Assembly: GCA_031393885.1 (NCBI GenBank)
Contig: JANMWG010000132.1
Location: 1 to 55,062, forward strand
DNA length: 55,062 nucleotides
Source of the DNA: Betaproteobacteria bacterium
GTDB lineage: Bacteria > Pseudomonadota > Gammaproteobacteria > Burkholderiales > Ga0077523
Reading direction: 5' to 3'
The notes beneath the pieces are model-generated. The model ran no database searches and was not told the origin of the DNA. It was given only the letters and a program-made list of their open reading frames with translations. Both the position numbers and the translations under genes were made by a program. Each line of letters starts with the position of its first letter. Position 1 is the stretch's first letter. Below are positions 23,606 to 39,535 of the stretch, piece after piece.

Positions 23606-24727
23606 ATGCGCAACCCCCTGCTCGGCGGACTCGCGACCCGCACATTCCTGTCGCGCCATTGGCAGAAACAGGCACTGCTGGTGCGACAAGCCATCCCGCA
23701 CTTCGGTGGTGTCCTCGACTTCCGCGAGCTGATGGGTCTCGCCTGCTCCGATACGGTCGAGTCACGCTTGGTGGTTCGCGACGCACGACGCTGGACACTC
23801 AGGCACGGCCCCTTCGACCGCACCGACTTCCGGCGTCTGCCAGCCCGCAACTGGACGCTGCTGGTACAGGGTGTCAATCTGCACGACGACAGGGCGGCCG
23901 CGTTGCTGGCGCGCTTCGCGTTTCTTCCGCATGCCCGGCTCGATGACCTGATGGTGAGCTACGCGGTGCCGGGCGGCGGTGTCGGCCCGCATTTCGACGC
24001 TTACGACGTGTTCCTGCTGCAGGGGGAAGGCAAGCGCCGCTGGCGGATCGGCCGCCAGAACGACCTCGCCCTGGTGCCCGGAGCGCCACTGAAGATCCTG
24101 CGGCGCTTCCAACCCGAAGGCGAAGCGATCCTGCTGGGCGGCGACATGCTGTACCTGCCGCCGAGATTCGCTCATCACGGCGTGGCGGTCACCGAGTGCA
24201 CCACGTGGTCGATCGGCTATCGCGCACCGACCCACCAGGAGTTGGCATCCCGGTTTCTGTCCGATCTCGCCGAGCGGCTGGTGCTCCCGGGCCAGTATGC
24301 AGATCCGGACCTCGCCGCCACCGTTCACCCCGGCCGGATCGGCGGTGCACTGGTCGCCACGACCGAACGGCTGCTGGCGGGCATCCGCTGGCGGCGCCGC
24401 GACGTCACCGACTTTCTCGGACGCCATCTGACGGAACCGAAACCACAGGTCTTTTTCGACCCACCGCGACACGGCTCGACCGGCATCGTCGCCCGCATCC
24501 GCCGACAGGGCGCCAAGCTGGATCGGCGCAGTCTCATGCTCTACGCCGACCATGCCGTCTACCTGAACGGAGAGGAGTACCGTTTTCCGCGCGGCGTGCC
24601 GGCGCCACTGCGCGAACTCGCGGATCGACGCTGCCTTGCGGCCCAGGCCGTGCCTGCACCGATCGCGACGATGCTTTACGATTGGTGGGTGGCCGGGTTC
24701 ATCCGGTTGCCAGCCGCAGGGAGTTGA
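23606..24727 (+). CDS. roxA: JmjC/cupin ribosomal protein L16 arginine hydroxylase (YcfD/RoxA-like)
   Basis: 373 aa. FLSRHWQKQ..., NWTLLVQGVNLH..., DDLMVSYAVPGGGVGPHFDAYDVFLLQGEGKRRWRIG is collinear with E. coli YcfD (DDLMISFSVPGGGVGPHLDQYDVFIIQGTGRRRWRVG). Confidence 0.88.
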   Translation: MRNPLLGGLATRTFLSRHWQKQALLVRQAIPHFGGVLDFRELMGLACSDTVESRLVVRDARRWTLRHGPFDRTDFRRLPARNWTLLVQGVNLHDDRAAALLARFAFLPHARLDDLMVSYAVPGGGVGPHFDAYDVFLLQGEGKRRWRIGRQNDLALVPGAPLKILRRFQPEGEAILLGGDMLYLPPRFAHHGVAVTECTTWSIGYRAPTHQELASRFLSDLAERLVLPGQYADPDLAATVHPGRIGGALVATTERLLAGIRWRRRDVTDFLGRHLTEPKPQVFFDPPRHGSTGIVARIRRQGAKLDRRSLMLYADHAVYLNGEEYRFPRGVPAPLRELADRRCLAAQAVPAPIATMLYDWWVAGFIRLPAAGS

Positions 24728-24730
24728 ACC

Positions 24731-25393
24731 ATGGCCGAAATGAAACGTCCACCCCCAGGCTTCGCCTTCCCCCAGGGGGCCAGTGCCCCTGGCGAGGTGA
24801 GGCCGGACACAGACAGTCCCTGCGGACTGTCTGTGTCTGCCAAACGCCAGCGGACTCTGGCCGCTGGCGGCCCGGCGGGCACTGAGATCGACACCACTCC
24901 GCCTGAACCGGATCCGCAGCCGAACCTGCGACGGCTGGCGTCGCGTACCGAAATCGAACACGCGATCGACGAAGTCCTGTCCCGGGCTCATCGCCGGCTG
25001 GTGGTGTTTTCCAACCAGCTCGGCGCCGAATGGAACCGGGAATCGCGCGTCGATCCGGTGCGCCGGTTCTGTCTCGACAGCCGCCGTAACCAGATGCACA
25101 TCGTGTTGCACGATGCCGGCACCGCCTACCGGTCCTGCCCGCGGCTCCTGTCGCTCCTGCGCCAGTTCAGCCATGTGATCTCGGTCCAGGAAACGCTCCA
25201 TCACGCCAAGAACGTCTACGATCCGTTCGTGCTCGCCGATGATCGCCACTACCTGCACCGCTTTCATCACGATGGTGCAGCCGGATTGCTGGCGCTCGAT
25301 GATCCGGTCGGCGCGACCGTCCTGCGCGACCGCTTCGAGGAGTTGTGGGAGGCATCGGCGCCGGCCATTCCAGCGACCACGATCGGCCTGTAG
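24731..25393 (+). CDS. Hypothetical protein, possibly a degenerate PLD-like fold; true start unresolved (the first ~50 codons are repeat-derived)
   Basis: Downstream of the repeat the translation looks protein-like: TEIEHAIDEVLSRAHRRLVVFSNQL...MHIVLHDAG...LHHAKNVYDPFVLADDRHYLHRF. There is no ATG/GTG/TTG between 24886 and the VVF codons, and the only ATGs lie inside the repeat. Confidence 0.45.
   Translation: MAEMKRPPPGFAFPQGASAPGEVRPDTDSPCGLSVSAKRQRTLAAGGPAGTEIDTTPPEPDPQPNLRRLASRTEIEHAIDEVLSRAHRRLVVFSNQLGAEWNRESRVDPVRRFCLDSRRNQMHIVLHDAGTAYRSCPRLLSLLRQFSHVISVQETLHHAKNVYDPFVLADDRHYLHRFHHDGAAGLLALDDPVGATVLRDRFEELWEASAPAIPATTIGL
24733..24886 (+). repeat. Repeat family R2, left copy (R1-like head plus a structured 104-bp core at 24779-24882)
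   Basis: The core contains the perfect 14-bp hairpin gacacagacagtcc-ctgc-ggactgtctgtgtc. It differs at 3 of 104 positions from the reverse complement of 25823-25926. Confidence 0.9.
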
Positions 25394-25412
25394 ATTTCTC
25401 GATTCCAGAGTA

Positions 25413-25440
25413 GTTACAAATTGTAAATACCGGTTACAAT
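25413..25440 (+). promoter_or_regulatory. Sigma-70-like promoter with the palindrome TTACAAATTGTAA
   Basis: GTTACA, a 16-nt spacer, then TACAAT. AT-rich, about 95 nt upstream of the lipoprotein gene. Confidence 0.5.
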
Positions 25441-30227: not shown

Positions 30228-30929
30228 TTGATTCCCTGGCTCGAAGCTGACGATCCCTTCCCGCCGGTGCCGGCAGCGCTCGCCCGACCCAACGGCCTGC
30301 TCGCCGCGGGCGACGATCTGTCACCCGGGCGCGTTCTCGACGCGTACCGGCACGGCATCTTCCCCTGGTTCAACGACGGCGAACCGGTACTCTGGTGGAG
30401 TCCCGATCCGCGCATGGTCCTGTTTCCCGCGGAGTTACGCGTATCGCACTCGCTCGACAAGACCTTGCGCAACAGACCATTCGAGGTGCGCTTCGATTTC
30501 GGCTTTCGCGAAGTGATGCAGGCCTGCGGCGAACCGCGGGATGGCCAGGCGGGCACCTGGATCACCGGACGCATGCTCGAGGTCTACTGCGCCCTGCACC
30601 GCGATGGCTGGGCGCACAGCGTCGAGACCTGGATCGACGGCGAACTCGCCGGCGGGCTGTACGGCGTGGCCATCGGCACCATGTTCTTCGGCGAGTCGAT
30701 GTTCACGCGGGTGCGCGACGCCTCGAAGATCGCGTTCGTTCATCTGGTCCGCCACCTGAACCGCGCGGGGTTTCGGATGCTCGACTGCCAGATGGCCACC
30801 GATCACCTGGCATCGCTCGGCGCCCGCGAGATTCCGCGGGACGAGTTTTCGAGGCATCTCGCGGAGTTGGTAAACTCGTCCGTTGTGCCGTCGGCTTGGC
30901 ACACCGTCCCGACCCCTATCCGGCGATGA
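30228..30929 (+). CDS. aat: Leucyl/phenylalanyl-tRNA--protein transferase
   Basis: [28 protein letters not shown]...[13 protein letters not shown]...GESMF. TTG start. Confidence 0.92.
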
Positions 30930-31648
30930 CCCAACTCAACGACCTGCCGTTTTCGGTGTTGCAGTTCTATGCAACCGCACCGTACCCGTGCAGCTATCTT
31001 GCCGACCGCCTGGCGCGTTCGCAGGTCGCGACGCCGAGTCACGCCATCGATACCCACGTCTACAGCGAGCTGGTGCGCGCCGGATTCCGGCGCAGCGGCG
31101 CCTTCACTTATCGCCCCTACTGCGACAGCTGCCGTGCCTGCATCCCGGTGCGCATCGCCGTCGACGGGTTTCGCCCCGGCCGCTCGCAGCGCCGCGCATG
31201 GCAGCGCCATAAAGCGCTCGAATCGCGCATCCTCGATCTTAAATACAGCCCCGAGCACTACGCGCTGTATCTGCGCTACCAGTCGGCACGCCACTTCGGC
31301 GGCGGCATGGACCACGATTCGCGCGAGCAATACCGCCATTTCCTGCTGCAGAGCAATGTGCGCTCCAACCTGATCGAATTCCGCGACCAAGGCGTGTTGC
31401 GCATGGTCAGCATCGTCGACCGTCTCGAAGACGGGCTCTCATCGGTGTACACGTTCTTCGATCCGGACGAGACCGGCGCGAGCTACGGTACCTTCAATGT
31501 GTTGTGGCAGATCGAGCTGTGCCGCCAGTTCGGTCTGCCGCAGCTGTACCTCGGTTACTGGATCGCCGAAAGCCGCAAGATGGCCTACAAGATCAACTTC
31601 CAGCCGATGGAAGGCCTGGTCGACGGCCAGTGGCAGCCGTTGGCATGA
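30926..31648 (+). CDS. bpt: Arginyltransferase-family protein Bpt (aspartate/glutamate leucyltransferase)
   Basis: [23 protein letters not shown]...[25 protein letters not shown]. The ATG overlaps the aat stop (ATGA). Confidence 0.9.
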
Positions 31649-31979: not shown

Positions 31980-32783
31980 ATGATCGGGACCGCAATGGAC
32001 ACCGGAGCCGTATCGCTCGAACGCCGCGACGCCGTGCTGTTGATCGGCCTCGACCGCGTGCCCAAGCGCAATGCCTTCGACCTGCCGATGTACGCCGCGC
32101 TCGCGAGCGCGCTCGGCACACTCGAACACGACCCCGGGCTGCGCTGCGGCGTGCTGTTCGCGCATGGCGAGCACTTCACCGGTGGCATCGACCTGCCCCA
32201 ATGGATACCGCACTTCCACGAGGGCCGTACCCCGCCGCTGCCCGACGACGGGCTCGATCCGCTCGGACTGGATGCGGCACGCACGCGATCCAAGCCGCTG
32301 GTGATGGCTGTGCAGGGTTACTGCTACACCATCGGCATCGAACTGCTGCTCGCCGCGGACATCCGCGTCGCCGCCGACACCAGTCGGTTCGCGCAGATCG
32401 AGGTCAAGCGTGGCATCTATCCGATCGGTGGCGCCACGGTACGGTTCGTCGCCGAAGCCGGCTGGGGCAACGCCATGCGCTGGCTGTTGACCGGCGACGA
32501 GTTCGATGCGGCGGAGGCACTGCGCATCGGCTTGGTACAACAGGTCGTTCCGGCTGGCGCGCAACTCGGCACTGCTGTCGCCATTGCCGACGGCATTGCC
32601 CGCCAGGCGCCGCTGGCGATCCGTGCCAGCCTGCTCGCCGCGCGCCATGCGGTGGAGCTCGGACAACGCGCCGCGATCGAGCGCCTGCTGCCCGATCTGC
32701 GGGCGCTGCTGGATACCGATGACGCGCGCGAAGGCCTCGCCGCATTTCGCGAACGCCGCGAGGGGCGATTCACTGGACGTTAG
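31980..32783 (+). CDS. Enoyl-CoA hydratase/isomerase (crotonase) family protein
   Basis: [17 protein letters not shown]...[10 protein letters not shown]...[27 protein letters not shown]...[10 protein letters not shown]. Confidence 0.85.
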
Positions 32784-32787
32784 CGCG

Positions 32788-33810
32788 CTGTATCGGGCCC
32801 TGCAGCCGCTGCTCTTCCGGCTCGACGGCGAACGCTCGCACGACCTCGCGCTGCGTCTCCTGGACACGGCGAGTGCACTGCGTCTGACGCGCCCGCCGAC
32901 CCCCTGGCCCGGTGCCGCGACACGGCTGATGGGCATCGATTTTCCCAATCCGGTCGGGCTCGCCGCCGGCCTCGACAAGAACGGCGCGCACCTGGATGCA
33001 CTGGCCGGCTTCGGCTTCGGCTTCATCGAGATCGGCACCGTCACCCCGCGCCCTCAGCCTGGCAACCCGCGGCCGCGAATGTTCCGCCTGCCGCCCGCAC
33101 GGGCGCTGATCAACCGTCTCGGCTTCAACAACGCCGGGGTTGATGCCTTGCTCGCCAACGTGGCCGCGAGCCGCTATCGCGGCGTGCTCGGCATCAACAT
33201 CGGCAAGAACGCCGACACCCCGATCGAGCGCGCCGCCGACGATTACCGGCTGTGCCTGCGTAAGGTGCATGCCATTGCGCACTACGTGACCGTCAACATC
33301 TCGTCGCCCAACACCCGCGACCTGCGACAGTTGCAGCAGGGCGATGCGCTGGATCGCCTGCTCGCGAGCATCATGAAAGAGCGCTATCGGCTGGAGCAGG
33401 AACATCGGCGGCGGGTACCGATCGCGGTCAAGCTCGCCCCCGATCTCGACCAAGCCGCCATCGCCGCCGCCGCCGCCACCCTGCTAAGACACGAGGTCGA
33501 CGCCGTGATCGCCACCAACACCACGATCGCCCGCGATGGCGTTGCCGGATTGCCCGGCGCCGACGAGGCTGGCGGCCTGTCCGGTGCGCCGTTGAAGACC
33601 CGCGCGACGAGCGTGCTTCGCTCCCTGCATGCAGCGCTGGGCGAGCGCATCCCGCTGATCGGTGTGGGCGGTATCCTCGACGCCACCGACGCGGCAGAAA
33701 AACTCGCCGCCGGTGCCCGGCTGGTGCAGGTCTACACCGGGCTCATCTATCGGGGACCGGATCTCGTGCGCGAACTCGTCACTGCGATGACGCCCGGGAG
33801 CCAGAGCTGA
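32788..33810 (+). CDS. pyrD: Dihydroorotate dehydrogenase (quinone), class 2; start codon non-canonical or unresolved
   Basis: (L)[19 protein letters not shown]...[19 protein letters not shown]...[23 protein letters not shown]...NISSPNT is collinear with E. coli PyrD starting [21 protein letters not shown]. At the aligned start position there is only CTG (32788 or 32773). Confidence 0.85.
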
Positions 33811-33853
33811 CCCGTTCGCTATAATTCGCGGCTGTCCCTGACCGTCTGATCGC

Positions 33854-36800
33854 ATGACCACCCTCGCCGCCGAAACACTTCGACTCGCCTTCGATTGCAC
33901 TTTTCCGGATCTGTACGACACCACCGGTCTTGAACGCCTCGACCGGGTATTTCTGGAACAACTGGCGCGCGTCGATCCGGCGCTTGCCTTCCGCATCGCT
34001 GAAGCGCGACTCGAACCCGACGCCCTCGACCGCAAGGAAGAGGCTGCTCTGCTGCTGGAAGCAGGCCCACATCTCGAAGACTTCCTGGCGCAGTTGTTCG
34101 GCATCGAGACGGCGGCCGGCGCCCTGGCCGAACGGCATCACGCGCTGGCTCCGGTATATGCGGTCAAGCGGTTGTTCGTCCAGCGCAAGGCCATGAACCG
34201 TATCAAGCCCGATGCAGCCGCCCTGCTCGACCCCGCGACGGTGGAGCGGGACCTCGCGAGTGCCATGGGCATGGCCTTCAGTGAACTCGAGTTCTCGCGC
34301 AGCGTGACCCGATGGCAGCAGGACGAGCCGGTGCATGCCACCGCCCTCGATGCCGCCATGCGTTACGCGGCCTGGGCGGCGCACACGCCGGAAGGCCAGG
34401 CCCGCCATGCATCGGGGGTGCTGTTCAAGGCCCCGCGCAAGCTCGATTTCCAGCGCCTGGTGCCGGTCGAGACGCTTGGCGATGGCGGCATCACGGTGCA
34501 CAGCCTGTCGCATCTGCGTCGTCGCAACGGCTTCGCCCTGACCGACGCCGGCACCGATCTCAACGGCGCGCTCGACCAAGCCAACTACTGCATCTGGTGT
34601 CACGAACAGGGCAAGGATTCGTGCTCGCACGGCCTCACCGAGAAAGCTCCCGCGCAAGGCTTTCGCAAGTCCACCTTCGGCGTGCCCCTGGCCGGCTGTC
34701 CGCTGGAGGAGCGTATCTCCGAATTCCACAAGCTCAAGACCGAGGGCTTGCCGCTCGCCGCATTGGCCATGATCGTGGTCGACAACCCGATGGTGGCCGC
34801 GACCGGCCACCGCATCTGCAATGACTGCATGAAGTCCTGCATCTACCAGAAGCAGGATCCGGTCAACATCCCCGAGGTCGAGACGCGCACGCTGAAGGAC
34901 GTTCTCGAGCTGCCGTGGGGCTTCGAGATCTATTCGCTGCTCACGCGCTGGAATCCACTGAACCTCCGGCGCCCGACACCGTGCCGCGACACCGGCCGCA
35001 AGGTCCTGGTGGTCGGCATGGGGCCGGCCGGCTTCACGCTCGCCCATCACCTGATGAACGATGGCCACGCTATCGTCGGCATCGACGGTCTGAAGATCGA
35101 ACCCCTTCCTGCCGCGCTTTCCGGCGTCGGCACCAGCGGCGAACGCACCGGCTTCGAACCGGTGCGCAACGTCAATGCGCTGCGCGAGCCGCTCGACGAC
35201 CGCATCATGGCCGGCTTCGGCGGCGTCGCCGAATACGGCATCACCGTGCGCTGGGACAAGAACTTCCTCAAGCTCATTCGGCTGCTGCTGGAACGACGCT
35301 CGGCGTTCGCGCTCTTCGGCGGCGTGCGCTTCGGCGGCACCCTCACGCTCGACGACGCCTTCGCGGCGGGGTTCGATCACGTCGCGATGTGCGCCGGTGC
35401 CGGCCGTCCGACCATCCTCGACCTGCCCAACGGCCTGGCGCGGGGCGTCCGCACCGCATCCGACTTCCTGATGGCCCTGCAACTGACCGGCGCCGCGCGG
35501 ACCGATTCGGTGGCCAACATGCAGTTGCGCCTGCCGGTGGTGGTGATCGGCGGCGGACTCACCGCCATCGATACCGCGACCGAATCACTCGCCTACTACC
35601 CGCTTCAGGTGGAGAAGTTTCTGCGACGCTACGAGATCCTGTGTGCCGAGCGCGGCGTCGGCGCCGTGCGCAAGGCGTGGACCGAAGAAGAGACCACCAT
35701 CGCCGAGGAATTCATCGGCCATGCGCGCGCCATTCGCGAGGAGCGAGCGGCGGCGGTCACGCACGGCCGCGCGGCACGGGTCATCGAGCTGCTGCAAGGC
35801 TGGGGCGGCGTCACCGTCGCTTATCGCAAGCGCATGATCGACAGCCCCAGCTACACGCTCAATCACGAAGAAATCGAGAAAGCCCTCGAGGAAGGCATCC
35901 GGTTCGCGGAGAACCTGACGCCGGTCGCCGTCGAGATCGACACGTTCGGTCATGCCACCGCCCTGCTGGTCGAAAGCCGCCAGACTGCCGCCGACGGCGG
36001 CAGCACGACCACGACGACGGCGCTGCCGGCACGCGCCATCCTGGTTGCCGCCGGCACCCAGCCGAATACGGTGGCGGGACGAGAAGACCCGGCACACTTC
36101 ACCATCGCCGGTCGCTACTTCCAGGCCGTCGACGAAGACGGCCGGCCGGTCACCCCCGAACGCAGCGCCAAGCCCAAAGTGCCGCAGGTGCTGCTGTCGA
36201 AACACGCGGACGGGCGGGCCGTGAGTTTCTTCGGCGATCTCCATCCTTCGTTTGCCGGCAACGTCGTCAAGGCCATGGGCAGCGCCAAGCTCGGCTATCC
36301 CGTTGTCAGTCGCGCTCTCGCCGCCACCGCGCCGGTGTCGGCACTGTCGACAGCGGAATTCTTCTCTGGACTCGATGCCGACCTGCGCGCCACCGTGCAC
36401 CAAGTCGTGCGTCTCACGCCCAACATCATCGAGATCGTGCTGCATGCGCCCCGGGCGGCGCGCAGCTTCCAGCCCGGCCAGTTCTACCGCCTGCAGAACT
36501 TCGAGTCGCTGGCGCCGGTGTCGGATGCGACCCGTCTGGCGATGGAAGGCCTGGCGCTCACCGGCGCCTGGGTCGACCGCGATCGTGGCCTGGTGTCGAC
36601 CATCGTGCTCGAGATGGGCGGCTCATCCGATCTTTGTGCCCTGCTGCAGCCCGGCGAACCGGTCGTGTTGATGGGCCCGACCGGTACACCCACGGAAACG
36701 CCCGGCGGCGAAACCGTCGCGCTGGTGGGCGGCGGGCTGGGTAACGCGGTGCTGTTCTCCATCGGCCAGGCGCTGCGGCAAGCGGGATCCAGGGTGCTGT

Positions 36801-37363
36801 ATTTCGCCGGCTACAAGAAGTTGATCGACCGCTACAAGATCGAGGAGATCGAGGCCGCGGCCGACGTCGTCGTCTGGTGCTCCGACGAGGCCCCCGGCTT
36901 CGTTCCCGGACGCCCGCAGGACCTGCGTTTCGTGGGTAACATCGTGCAGGCGATGCGCAGCTACGCTGCGGGCGAACTCGGGTCGCAGCCCATCGCGCTC
37001 GCCGAGTGCGACCGCGTGATCGCCATCGGATCCGATCGGATGATGGCGGCTGTCGGGGCTGCCCGCCATGGCGTCCTGCAACCGCACCTGAAACCGCATC
37101 ACTTCGCGATCGGGTCGATCAACTCGCCGATGCAATGCATGATGAAGGAGATCTGCGCCCAGTGCCTGCAGCCTCAGATCGATCCCGCCACCGGCGAACG
37201 CAGCTACGTGTTCTCCTGCTTCAACCAGGACCAGCCGCTGGATCGGGTCGACTTTCCCGCATTGGCGCAGCGCCTGGGCCAGAACTCGATCCAGGAAAAG
37301 CTCACCGCCCAGTGGATCGACCATTGCCTGATCCGCCTGCAGAAGCGCGCCGCGGTGGCATAG
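33854..37363 (+). CDS. Large fused flavoprotein: unknown N-domain, GltD/NfnB-like Fe-S/FAD/NAD(P)H module, and PyrK/NfnA-like FNR module with a 2Fe-2S site
   Basis: 1169 aa. Cys-rich segments [26 protein letters not shown] and ICNDCMKSC. Rossmann motifs [17 protein letters not shown] and [14 protein letters not shown]. The C-terminal FNR-like region ends [10 protein letters not shown]...FSCFNQDQP (C-x5-C-x2-C...C, as in PyrK). Confidence 0.75.
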
Positions 37364-37371
37364 CCGCACCC

Positions 37372-38046
37372 ATGCGCTCAGCACTCGCCGATGCCATCGA
37401 CGCGCTGCTGCCGCAGACGCAGTGTCGCAAATGCGGATTCGATGGCTGCGCGCCGTACGCCGAGGCGATCGCCACGGGCAGCGCCGGCATCGACCGGTGC
37501 CCGCCGGGGGGGCAACATGGCATCGACCAACTGGCGACCCTGCTCAGTGCCGACTCGATGCCGCTCGATCTTGCCCGCGGCACTGCGGGGGTGTCGGAAC
37601 TCGCCCTCATCGACGAATCGCTGTGCATCGGCTGCACGCTATGCGTCCAGGCCTGCCCGGTCGATGCGATCGTCGGAGCGGCTGGACGCATGCATACGGT
37701 CATGCTGGAGGATTGCAGTGGATGCGGCCTGTGCGTTGCCCCTTGTCCGGTCGACTGCATAGCCATGGTGCCGATATCGGCCCTCGCGCCGGCCCATGAC
37801 GTGACGCCGAGACCGGAAGCGGCGCTGCCAGCACTCGCGGCGCATTGGCGATCTCGCCACGAAACGAGGGGACGGCGGCTCTCGGATGAACGCTTGGCGC
37901 GTGAGGTGCGACTCGCCGAACGCGCGGCCGGCGCTCGACTTCCCGACGCTGGCCAGGCAGCAGCGGCACAGCGTAGATCGGCCGTTGCGGCCGCTCTGGC
38001 GCGCGCCCGTGAGCGCCGTGCGGCAAATGTCGGGCGGCACGATTGA
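37372..38046 (+). CDS. rnfB: RnfB/RsxB-like ferredoxin (N-terminal Cys cluster plus 2x[4Fe-4S])
   Basis: [22 protein letters not shown]...IDRCPPGG, then [16 protein letters not shown] and [16 protein letters not shown]. Followed by nth, as in rsx/rnf loci, but no other rnf genes are present. Confidence 0.8.
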
Positions 38047-38732
38047 ATCCATCGAAACGGGCCGAGATCTTCCGGCGGTTGCGCGAAGCAAATCCGCACC
38101 CGACCACCGAACTTGCCTACGCCAGCGCGTTCGAGCTGTTGGTCGCGGTCGTGCTCTCCGCACAGGCCACCGATCGCAGCGTCAACCTGGCAACCGCAAA
38201 GCTGTTTCCGATGGCCAATACGCCGGCCGCGATCCTGGCGCTCGGACCTGACGCGCTGGAACAGATGATCCGGACCATCGGCCTGTACCGCACCAAGGCG
38301 CGCAACGTGATCGCGCTGTGTCGGCAACTGATCGACCTGAACGGCGGCGAGGTGCCGCGCGAGCGTGCGGCGCTGGAAGCGTTGCCGGGGGTGGGGCGCA
38401 AGACCGCCAATGTCGTCCTCAACACCGCGTTCGGCGAACCCACGATGGCGGTCGACACCCACATCTTCCGCCTGGCCAACCGGATCAATCTCGCGCCCGG
38501 GAAAAATGTAGCCGAGGTCGAGCGCAAGCTTCTGAAGTTCGTACCCGACGAGTTTCTGCAGGATGCCCACCACTGGCTGATCCTGCACGGACGTTACGTG
38601 TGCACGGCAAGATCACCCGCCTGCACCACGTGCATCATCGCGGACCTGTGCGAGTATCGGCACAAGACAACCGAGACGCCGACTGCGGAGGCCGGCGCGG
38701 GTTCGTCCAGGGCTCGTCCTCGCGCCCTTTGA
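38043..38732 (+). CDS. nth: Endonuclease III
   Basis: [31 protein letters not shown]...[14 protein letters not shown]...DTHIFR...[28 protein letters not shown] contains the HhH motif and the 4Fe-4S Cys motif. The TTG start overlaps the rnfB stop. Confidence 0.95.
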
Positions 38733-39163
38733 TGTTCACACCGTCGCGTGATCAGGCGCGCGCATTCCTGACCGATACGTGGCGCAAGAGCCAGGCCGGC
38801 GAGCCACTGTCGGCGCTGGAACGCATGGTGATGGGCATTCTCGTGCTGCATCCCGAATATCACCCGATCATCGAACGCCCGGAAGCATTCGCGGATCGCG
38901 ATTTTCGCCCGGCGTCGGGCGTGATGAACCCGTTCCTGCATCTGCAGCTGCACCTCGCGGTCGAGGAGCAGTTGTCGATCGATCAGCCGTTCGGGATCAG
39001 GCAGGCCTTCGAATCCCTGCGTGCACGGCTGGGTGACGACCATGCCGCCCGCCACGCGGTACTCGAATGCCTGGGGGAAGTGCTGTGGCAAGGTCAGCGC
39101 ACCGGCACCGGTCCCGATACGGAACTCTATCTGGGGCTGTTGCGCGACCGCCTGAAGCAGTAG
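38732..39163 (+). CDS. DUF1841-like protein
   Basis: [19 protein letters not shown]...HPEYHPII...MNPFLHLQLHLAVEEQL...HAARHAVLECLGEVLW fits my recollection of DUF1841. The ATG overlaps the nth stop. Confidence 0.65.
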   Translation: MFTPSRDQARAFLTDTWRKSQAGEPLSALERMVMGILVLHPEYHPIIERPEAFADRDFRPASGVMNPFLHLQLHLAVEEQLSIDQPFGIRQAFESLRARLGDDHAARHAVLECLGEVLWQGQRTGTGPDTELYLGLLRDRLKQ

Positions 39164-39193
39164 GGCACCGCCGGGGCGCCCCGAATCCGACTC

Positions 39194-39535
39194 TCAATAC
39201 TTGAGATGCAGACCTTCCTGGTGCGAGACGTAGGCGGCGATGTCGGCGATGTCCTGCTTCGAGAGGGCAGCCGCCATGGCATTCATGATCACGTTGATGC
39301 GCTTCTTGCTCTTGTAGGCGGCAAGGGTGTGCTTGATGTAGTCCTCGTGCTGACCCGCCAGCAGCGGATAGTCGGGCGTGATCGGCTTCGCCCCCTGCTC
39401 CCCGTGACACGCCTTGCAGGTTTCGAACTTGGTCTGCCCGGCGACCGGGTCACCACCCGCGATCGCCTGACCGCAGCCCCATCCGAATGACGCCATTGCA
39501 CTAGCCACGATAGCGACGCGAATTCGTTTGTTCAT
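39194..39535 (-). CDS. Monohaem c-type cytochrome (class I, c4-half-like)
   Basis: MNKRIRVAIVASAMASFGWG signal peptide, CKACHG haem site, and a distal Met region NVIMNAMA. Confidence 0.85.
   Translation of the reverse strand: MNKRIRVAIVASAMASFGWGCGQAIAGGDPVAGQTKFETCKACHGEQGAKPITPDYPLLAGQHEDYIKHTLAAYKSKKRINVIMNAMAAALSKQDIADIAAYVSHQEGLHLKY

Follow-up and report, generated by a model that had tools for sequence, protein, structure and literature searches.

A single-chain iron-sulfur flavoprotein of the RP005/PRK06567 type, encoded beside a soluble RnfB-like gene in a betaproteobacterium, as a candidate NAD(P)H/ferredoxin-type enzyme

We analyzed a stretch of 55,062 nucleotides (nt) from Betaproteobacteria bacterium (contig JANMWG010000132.1 of assembly GCA_031393885.1), which is referred to here as the window. 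The window contains a gene for a protein of 1169 amino acids (aa) that is preceded by pyrD and followed by genes for a small RnfB-like ferredoxin and for the endonuclease III Nth. In particular, this large gene (referred to here as the fusion gene) encodes a helical N-terminal domain, a middle module that resembles NfnB and GltD, and a C-terminal module that resembles NfnA and PyrK (Table 1). The 1169-aa protein is intact and typical of the RP005/PRK06567-type family, to which it belongs. The best explanation overall, and the one towards which we lean, is that it is a single chain of the RP005 type that carries out electron transfer of the NAD(P)H:ferredoxin type.

Table 1. Coordinates of the fusion gene, the parts of its product and the adjoining genes in the window
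Feature	Position	Strand	Basis
RP005/PRK06567-type single-chain Fe-S flavoprotein open reading frame (ORF), 1169 aa	33854..37363, stop included	+	ATG start
RP005_N domain (residues 1-191), all helices, no relative found among solved structures	33854..34426	+	PF27156, fold model
NfnB/GltD-like module, residues 192-826 (Fe-S domain; FAD Rossmann motif 388-393; NADPH Rossmann motif 566-571; Y657-R658 strand; helical insertion ~569-650)	34427..36331	+	5jfc_L fold alignment, profiles, conserved motifs
Seven invariant Cys, putative two [4Fe-4S] sites	34589..34840	+	50-member alignment
NfnA/PyrK-like module of the ferredoxin-NADP reductase (FNR) type, residues 846-1169 (M-G-P-x-G 940-944; GGGLGNA 959-965; [2Fe-2S] subdomain; C-terminal helix)	36389..37360	+	profiles, 5jca_S fold match
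All-Cys [2Fe-2S] motif C1095-x5-C1101-x2-C1104-x17-C1122	37136..37219	+	invariant in 50/50 sequences
pyrD, quinone-dependent class 2 dihydroorotate dehydrogenase	32785..33810	+	NF003646, 514.4 bits vs cut-off 457; Pfam DHO_dh
Soluble RnfB-like ferredoxin, 224 aa	37372..38046	+	ATG 37372, 8 nt past the stop of the fusion gene
nth, endonuclease III	38043..38732	+	TIGR01083, 274.5 bits vs cut-off 211.7

The architecture of the 1169-aa protein is not new, as its family has already been catalogued (NF005128/PRK06567, Pfam PF27156 RP005_N). The NCBIfam model NF005128/PRK06567, which bears the title 'putative bifunctional glutamate synthase subunit beta/2-polyprenylphenol hydroxylase', was the top model by far (E 7e-233, 775.7 bits). 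Note that this score lies below the equivalog cut-off of 1072 bits, which was also reached in none of the genomes of a phylum sample and in none of 14 model control genomes; by the NCBI criterion the protein is therefore a betaproteobacterial relative and not an equivalog of the rickettsial protein. PF27156 (RP005_N; PF27156.1) is annotated on the 100%-identical cluster P0004 and on all 120 listed homologues, and in the Atlas, where PF27156 carries the name RP005_N, the best match was 0.94 and spanned residues 1-240. The protein also has the full-length collinear build of ~1100-1200 aa that characterizes the RP005 type: the 150 listed representatives mostly match residues ~8-1160 in a single stretch.

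By sequence, both modules score closer to Nfn and Sud proteins than to GltD and PyrK. Pfam placed Pyr_redox_2 at residues 383-764 and Fer4_20 at residues 280-344, the latter with 24.9 bits, just below its cut-off of 25.8. The middle part gave 87 bits with TIGR01316, as against 53 and 50.3 bits with the GltD models TIGR01317 and TIGR01318, whose cut-offs are 447.7 and 482.95, and in a sequence comparison with the PDB it matched the large subunit of Xfn/NfnI (E 1e-11) ahead of GltD (1.3e-8). Similarly, the C-terminal ~320 residues scored higher with the NfnA/SudB-like model PRK06222 (57.9 bits) than with the PyrK model PRK00054 (35.8 bits; PRK00054.1-4 has a cut-off of 314), both models aligning at ~850-1015, and their PDB matches were to Thermotoga maritima NfnA (4ylf_A, 3e-12) and the small subunit of Pyrococcus furiosus NfnI (2.3e-10) ahead of PyrK (2.7e-3). 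GltB is not among the neighbors within 6 kb, namely pyrD, the rnfB-like gene, nth and a DUF1841 gene (the rest of the genome was not searched for GltB). A separate GltD-like gene is located elsewhere in the same genome, on contig C423.

Residues at the putative cofactor sites were compared in an alignment, A1, of 50 full-length family members that are 33-69% identical to the 1169-aa protein. The seven cysteines C246, C249, C257, C282, C322, C325 and C329 of the Fe-S region are invariant, as are H250 and D255, which lie among them, and E343, just downstream of the segment at 34589..34840; C282, C322, C325 and C329 align with cysteines of Xfn/NfnI-L in the PDB sequence alignment. In the FAD motif G388-x-G390-P391-A-G393, residues G388, G390, P391 and G393 are invariant, and the same holds for G566, G568, L569, D573, A575 and E577 of the second Rossmann motif, in which G567 is kept in 45/50 sequences. 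Y657 is invariant and R658 is present in 48/50. Toward the C-terminus the 1169-aa protein has an intact NAD(P)H motif (GGGLGNA, 959-965), and C1095, C1101, C1104 and C1122 occur in 50/50 sequences; this four-Cys motif type is shared with PyrK. In addition, D30 and R52 of the N-terminal domain, plus R222 and R224, are invariant in 61 sequences.

AlphaFold2, with A1 as its input, gave a model of the whole chain with a mean predicted local distance difference test (pLDDT) score of 93.6 and a predicted template-modeling (pTM) score of 0.94. The best Foldseek match of this model was the large subunit of NfnI (5jfc_L, E 1.5e-22, TMt 0.82), and the C-terminal end matched the small subunit of NfnI (5jca_S, TMt 0.91, root-mean-square deviation (rmsd) 2.3). 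VIA-align placed 5jfc_L on model residues 193-824 with a Z of 28.7 and an rmsd of 2.6 (440/463 aligned, 27% identity). Insertions account for ~190 of the 635 residues of the NfnB-like span in the model, including helices at ~569-650. The N-terminal 191 residues are all helical in the model, with helices within 17-184, and RP005_N folded alone from 61 sequences had a pLDDT of 87.9. No solved relative of RP005_N was found by Foldseek (best E 1.4), and the best VIA-align match, to a sigma-factor helix bundle (Z 6.0 across 66 residues), is below the meaningful level for helical models.

Consistent with a preliminary description of this locus, which was drawn from the letters alone and proposed a one-chain fusion of GltD/NfnB and PyrK/NfnA modules in B-A order behind an N-terminal domain, the sequence, profile and fold evidence concur, and domain annotation recovered the NfnB/GltD-like and NfnA/PyrK-like modules and no unrelated families. 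The Cys clusters and two Rossmann motifs that it saw in the central part correspond to the seven invariant cysteines and to two motifs with conserved glycines, and the C-terminal PyrK-type C-x5-C-x2-C...C 2Fe-2S motif that it reported is the one whose four cysteines are invariant. Two of its boundaries had to be moved. The N-terminal domain, described as ~250 aa long and unassigned, consists of ~190 aa of helices plus a hairpin and is the Pfam domain RP005_N, with the NfnB-like fold starting at residue 192, and the C-terminal module comprises ~320 aa (846-1169) instead of ~280 aa.

The possibility that the fusion is an assembly or frameshift artefact, which the preliminary description had allowed for, is rejected by the occurrence of homologues of the same length, by full-length matches and by the lack of stops in related genes. 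In a word-indexed protein search, all 8000 scored candidates proved to be homologous; the 120 that were listed have lengths of 1165-1201 aa, 71-100% identity and 98-100% query coverage. Among 50%-identity representatives, which were searched exhaustively with HMMER, single-stretch full-length matches go down to 35% identity. The family is large, with 4423 representative clusters matched at E<=0.001 and 1243 at E<=1e-30. In a sample of 151 genomes of the same GTDB order (the order sample), the fusion gene was found in 52 genomes, representing 31 of 96 genera, and in none of these 52 carriers is there an internal stop within the match. (The order sample includes G026, a genome that is flagged as unpublished; it contributes one count per order tally, and nothing depends on it alone.) Within the phylum sample, a match to NF005128 at E<=1e-100 was obtained in 29 of 301 genomes, and the 14 model control genomes gave no match at this threshold, which may explain the lack of characterization of the family. 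Thus, the fusion is real yet ordinary for its family. Among 12 longer family members that were scanned, 11 had no additional Pfam domain and one had an inserted DUF559. (In P0183, a family member of 1079 aa, the DUF559 endonuclease-like domain occupies residues 173-275, within the N-terminal region, and is probably an inserted mobile or restriction-related gene.)

Electron transfer of the NAD(P)H/ferredoxin type is the most economical, and the most likely, reading of the 1169-aa protein. The NfnB/GltD-like module would probably bind two [4Fe-4S] clusters, FAD and NADPH, and the NfnA/PyrK-like module would probably bind FAD, NAD(P)H and an all-Cys [2Fe-2S] cluster. Electrons would pass between pyridine nucleotides and a low-potential one-electron carrier, most likely ferredoxin, by way of FAD and both [4Fe-4S] clusters, and the [2Fe-2S]/FAD module would offer them another point at which to enter or leave. 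Where the NADPH pool of the cell is reduced, NADPH would serve to make reduced ferredoxin, and the RnfB-like protein may be one acceptor in this clade.

The fold of the middle module also brings to mind a different role, in which the protein would be an electron-input module for a partner or substrate other than ferredoxin, as GltD is for GltB or as the N-terminal half of dihydropyrimidine dehydrogenase (DPD) is for its catalytic half, and in which RP005_N would be a docking or substrate domain. GltD (7mfm_I) and DPD match the NfnB-like module nearly as well as Nfn does (VIA-align Z 27.8 and ~23, respectively), and the strong conservation of RP005_N noted above would suit such a domain. Residues 192-826 differ from GltD and DPD in that the GltD profiles score far below their cut-offs and there is no large-subunit or catalytic domain. 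No match of RP005_N was obtained in proteins longer than 2046 aa, which is weak evidence against a longer fused form, and a search of shorter proteins gave 645 matches of 188-632 aa, many of them 'partial', with no stable split form apparent. The version of this alternative in which the partner is a sulfite reductase fits the genome superficially, as NIR_SIR-type reductases are present and no CysJ exceeds the cut-off. The order sample, which was searched for the 1169-aa protein, the RnfB-like protein, Nth, CysJ and RnfA/E, nevertheless contained CysJ over the cut-off in only 9 of 151 genomes, 7 of which also carry the fusion gene; 45 carriers are without CysJ and 97 genomes have neither. These counts reveal no complementary pattern, and replacement of CysJ is thus unsupported in this order. 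Moreover, when all flanking ORFs of 80 public loci of close relatives (58 with more than 3 kb upstream and 57 with more than 3 kb downstream) were clustered, no sulfite reductase was present among the 35 recurrent neighbor clusters that were annotated. A role as an electron-input module is accordingly one that we consider rather improbable. (In the available text of 10.1101/072470, it is DUF2849, not the RP005-type family, that is proposed as an electron source for CysI, and we found no functional study in the literature that links the RP005-type family with sulfite reductase.)

At the locus itself, the stop codon of pyrD and the start of the fusion gene are separated by 43 nt. Homology to PyrD begins at 32785 (GCG), and the nearest in-frame ATG is at 32719. 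The assignment to the quinone-dependent class (NF003646, 514 bits versus 457) agrees with the preliminary description, in which the preceding gene was a class 2 pyrD. In class 1B enzymes PyrK is the partner of PyrD, and the proximity of pyrD on the same strand, together with its presence near the fusion gene in related loci (upstream in L010-L013, and beside it in the opposite orientation in L074), could be taken to mean that the 1169-aa protein serves the upstream PyrD in the same manner. We regard this as very improbable: the adjoining pyrD is of the quinone-dependent class, pyrD is near the fusion gene in only these 5 of the 80 loci, and the PyrK model scores 35.8 bits against a cut-off of 314. 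The adjacency of pyrD is local, lineage-specific synteny with no functional link. Note that an exact TATAAT hexamer occurs at 33820-33825, within the 43-nt gap and 28 nt ahead of the ATG of the fusion gene. A scan of 32300-39400 with a two-hexamer consensus found no promoter-like sites, and the same interval has two terminator-like sites, both within the fusion gene, where shuffled sequences lead one to expect 2.9.

Downstream of the fusion gene the spacing is operon-like, with 8 nt before the rnfB-like gene and a 4-nt overlap between its stop and the start of nth, which is followed by the DUF1841 gene. The fusion gene, the rnfB-like gene and nth are probably co-transcribed in this clade. The RnfB-like protein was called a stand-alone RnfB-like polyferredoxin in the preliminary description. 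It is indeed RnfB-like, passing TIGR01944 with 190.1 bits versus 68.7; the word polyferredoxin goes too far for a protein with a single PF04060 Fe-S domain and a single 2x[4Fe-4S] domain. The match to TIGR01944 starts only at model position 34, and the match to subunit B of the Rnf complex (8ahx_B, E 4e-29) covers chain residues 36-159; the RnfB-like protein is therefore without the N-terminal membrane anchor. It resembles RnfB of the Rnf complex in its PF04060 and 2x[4Fe-4S] domains and in its linkage to nth, and differs from it in being anchor-less and in having a basic C-terminal tail of ~90 aa that ends in a conserved helix. (The consensus of this helix in 25 sequences is RKxAAIxAAxERARARR.) The statement that no other rnf genes are present holds for RnfA/E (PF02508), for which there were 0 matches in the 96.49%-complete genome. 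The RnfD family (PF03116) gave a single marginal match on another contig, with 27.9 bits versus 27.7. (This NQR2_RnfD_RnfE match is a 344-aa ORF on contig C532 of genome G000, at L004:1024-2058 (+), and may represent a stand-alone RnfD-like membrane protein. A 455-aa frame on contig C48, at 24301-25431, has a 4Fe-4S ferredoxin domain joined to a C-terminal part that resembles CysJ/FNR (91.8 bits to positions 383-572 of TIGR01931), and may represent a further soluble fusion of ferredoxin and reductase encoded by this genome.)

The RnfB-like gene is tied to nth. It is present in 141 of the 151 genomes of the order sample, and in 112 genomes rnfB and nth lie at most 10 kb apart on one strand, with rnfB upstream in 109. 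The two genes are directly adjacent (<=300 nt) in 58 genomes and 1.5-10 kb apart in 46. Where RnfA/E are missing, rnfB abuts nth, and where they exist the layout is rnfA-B-...-E-nth, with rnfA and rnfE flanking the gap between rnfB and nth in examples such as contig 8 of G029. From this layout, the stand-alone rnfB-nth pair is apparently a remnant of an rnfABCDGE-nth operon. The RnfB-like gene belongs foremost to an rnfB-nth unit whose existence does not depend on the fusion gene. (No functional study linking RnfB with nth was found in the literature.)

We considered whether the 1169-aa protein is a dedicated reductase of the soluble RnfB-like ferredoxin, that is, a cytoplasmic substitute for the lost membrane part of Rnf that serves whatever role RnfB has beside nth. 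The 8-nt spacing on the same strand is in keeping with this idea, and in the order sample the fusion gene is directly ahead of rnfB, always in that order, in 15 of 52 carriers (and 1.4 kb off in one more), with RnfA/E in 0 of those 15; these direct pairs come from six GTDB families (f1, f4, f11, f29, f42 and f45). The fusion gene is also found in 35 of 75 genomes with a tail-bearing RnfB, compared to 10 of 53 with a core-only RnfB, and it is more common where PF02508 was not found (43/95) than where it was (9/56). By genome, both are present in 9 cases, the fusion gene only in 43, RnfA/E only in 47 and neither in 52 (odds ratio 0.23). However, when the same counts are collapsed to GTDB families the association fades (10/17/20/14, odds ratio 0.41, p 0.12), and we treat the negative association between the fusion gene and RnfA/E as a lead and not a result. 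Moreover, 40 of the 75 tail-bearing genomes are without the fusion gene. The public loci contain rnfB directly downstream in 5 of 80 cases (L010-L013 and L084), and in a 76-protein tree, from which five of the 80 loci were left out for a match of <900 aa or one containing a stop, these directly adjacent cases form one clade (SH-aLRT 93), beyond which the public loci have no RnfB-like neighbor except at L056, which lies elsewhere in the tree and has rnfB 1.6 kb downstream, behind a polyhydroxybutyrate (PHB) depolymerase gene. A complex prediction with residues 1-830 of the 1169-aa protein and residues 1-165 of the RnfB-like protein, both supplied as alignments, gave run scores of 0.32, 0.00 and 0.00, values that favor neither binding nor its absence. 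A dedicated RnfB reductase seems an improbable general role, and partnership with RnfB, which the preliminary description had put forward, is weakly supported: the RnfB-like gene occurs in 141/151 genomes regardless of the fusion gene (52/151), and we would rate the partnership as a doubtful, lineage-specific possibility. (At L056:5560-12468 the row of genes reads fdxA (7Fe ferredoxin), fusion gene, PHB depolymerase gene, rnfB-like gene, nth.)

A second type of ferredoxin gene adjoins the fusion gene in other relatives. In 4 of the 80 loci (L039, L056, L067 and L086), a 7Fe FdxA-type gene (DUF3470) precedes it on the same strand at a distance of 23-118 nt. That two unrelated ferredoxin types adjoin the fusion gene in different branches is the best contextual support for a ferredoxin-linked function.

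Several observations weigh against NAD(P)H/ferredoxin-type electron transfer as the function of the family, or against its pairing with RnfB, and some of them concern the cofactor sites. The glycines of the C-terminal NAD(P)H motif vary, G959 being kept in 38/50 sequences, G960 in 32/50 and G961 in 29/50, low counts that may in part reflect alignment error; the second nucleotide site may thus not be general in the family, and some members may have lost it. The first ligand of the [2Fe-2S] site is Cys in 50/50 sequences, versus Asp in NfnA, and so the description 'NfnAB fused' fits the shape of the protein and not a demonstrated mechanism. The Z of GltD is within one unit of that of NfnI-L, from which it follows that fold alone cannot separate Nfn from GltD. 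Other observations concern the genomic setting. Most neighborhoods are unrelated to ferredoxin, with branched-chain ATP-binding cassette (ABC) transporter genes in up to 20, short-chain dehydrogenase/reductase (SDR) genes in 14 and dihydrodipicolinate synthase (DHDPS)-like genes in 11 of the 80 loci, and ferredoxin-type neighbors of both types together cover only a minority. As for co-occurrence with the RnfB-like gene, 93 of the 141 genomes that bear it are without the fusion gene, and 4 carriers of the fusion gene have no RnfB-like match; since the cases of direct adjacency fall in one clade, the adjacency can be a single inherited event. Finally, we found no functional, biochemical or genetic study of any member of the RP005/PRK06567 family in the literature. 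The claim in the preliminary description of an NAD(P)H/ferredoxin enzyme made of the NfnAB subunit types stands in its build and probably in its general chemistry; the analogy with Nfn fails at one defining feature, the Asp ligand of NfnA.

The same data bear on the narrower proposition that the protein is a true single-chain Nfn. Every Nfn cofactor site has a counterpart (seven cysteines for two [4Fe-4S] clusters, two flavin sites, two nucleotide sites and the [2Fe-2S] site), both Nfn subunit folds are matched, and the pTM of 0.94 suggests that the modules are held in a fixed arrangement. In particular, the middle module has the fold and the conserved ligand and nucleotide motifs that would be expected of an NfnB-type subunit, and the likeness to NfnAB/NfnI (5jfc/5jca; 4ylf) and to Xfn (5vj7) extends to the two flavin-type modules, the NADPH-type Rossmann motif with its Y-R strand and the [2Fe-2S] subdomain. 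In contrast, identity to NfnI-L in the structural alignment is just 27%, 12-21 of 50 members have a degenerate second nucleotide motif, and neither the N-terminal domain of ~190 aa nor a helical insertion of ~70 aa, one of several, has a counterpart in Nfn. According to the available text of Liang et al. 2019 (PMC6405883), NfnA has the conserved cluster motif DGTGMCGxCRx10CV, in which the Asp ligand lifts the potential to +80 mV, and the conserved gene order is nfnA-then-nfnB. The 1169-aa protein, unlike NfnAB, has an all-Cys site where NfnA has Asp(Cys)3, and is one chain in B-then-A order and not two subunits. Furthermore, NfnAB is known from strict anaerobes, whereas record titles place the RP005-type family in Nitrosomonas, Gallionella, Reyranella, Bryobacteraceae and similar taxa. 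On these grounds we think it unlikely that the protein is a true single-chain Nfn.

Fused proteins of related build have been described in print. The available text of the same review (PMC6405883) reports fused Nfn homologues of 'Pattern C' in Actinobacteria and Proteobacteria, B-then-A in order and uncharacterized in their properties. Like these (NCBIfam PRK12779), the 1169-aa protein is encoded by a single gene and has the a-FAD/NAD/[2Fe2S] part at its C-terminus; unlike these, which are described there as ~200 aa beyond fusions of 750 aa, it scores just 82 bits with PRK12779 against a cut-off of 1519. As far as that text goes, a single aerobe with an Nfn homologue is named and the survey set was drawn at 40-90% identity to Clostridium kluyveri NfnAB; the survey apparently did not count the RP005-type family. 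PRK06567 itself is described in the available text of PMC3641634 as a 'GltD-UbiB chimera', a Rickettsiales signature that is found in nearly every Rickettsiales genome. The NF005128/PF27156 family to which this chimera belongs has the same three-part build as the 1169-aa protein and is its best profile match; the 1169-aa protein is ~140 aa longer than the 1031-position model and, at 775.7 bits, stays below 1072.

If NADPH-driven reduction of ferredoxin by this family is true, it would explain the supply of low-potential electrons in many aerobic bacteria, and if bifurcation is true, flavin-based bifurcation would reach well beyond anaerobes. A bolder proposal, which we would call a long shot, concerns betaproteobacteria that have lost the membrane subunits of Rnf and have kept the soluble RnfB-nth pair. 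There the enzyme would take the place of Rnf in the cytoplasm without recourse to an ion gradient, splitting electrons from NADPH in an Nfn-like way between NAD+, the high-potential sink, and the RnfB-like ferredoxin, which would thereby be reduced. More broadly, the family would supply the low-potential ferredoxin whose source is missing in many aerobic Proteobacteria, including Rickettsiales. The link to RnfB is in any case lineage-specific.

On the upstream side, beyond pyrD, the window contains an enoyl-CoA hydratase gene and two transferase genes, aat and one of the ate type. At 30228-31648, aat, which encodes a leucyl/phenylalanyl-tRNA-protein transferase, adjoins the arginyl-transferase-like gene (ATE_N/ATE_C), and a gene of the ATE type is near the fusion gene in 6 of the 80 related loci.

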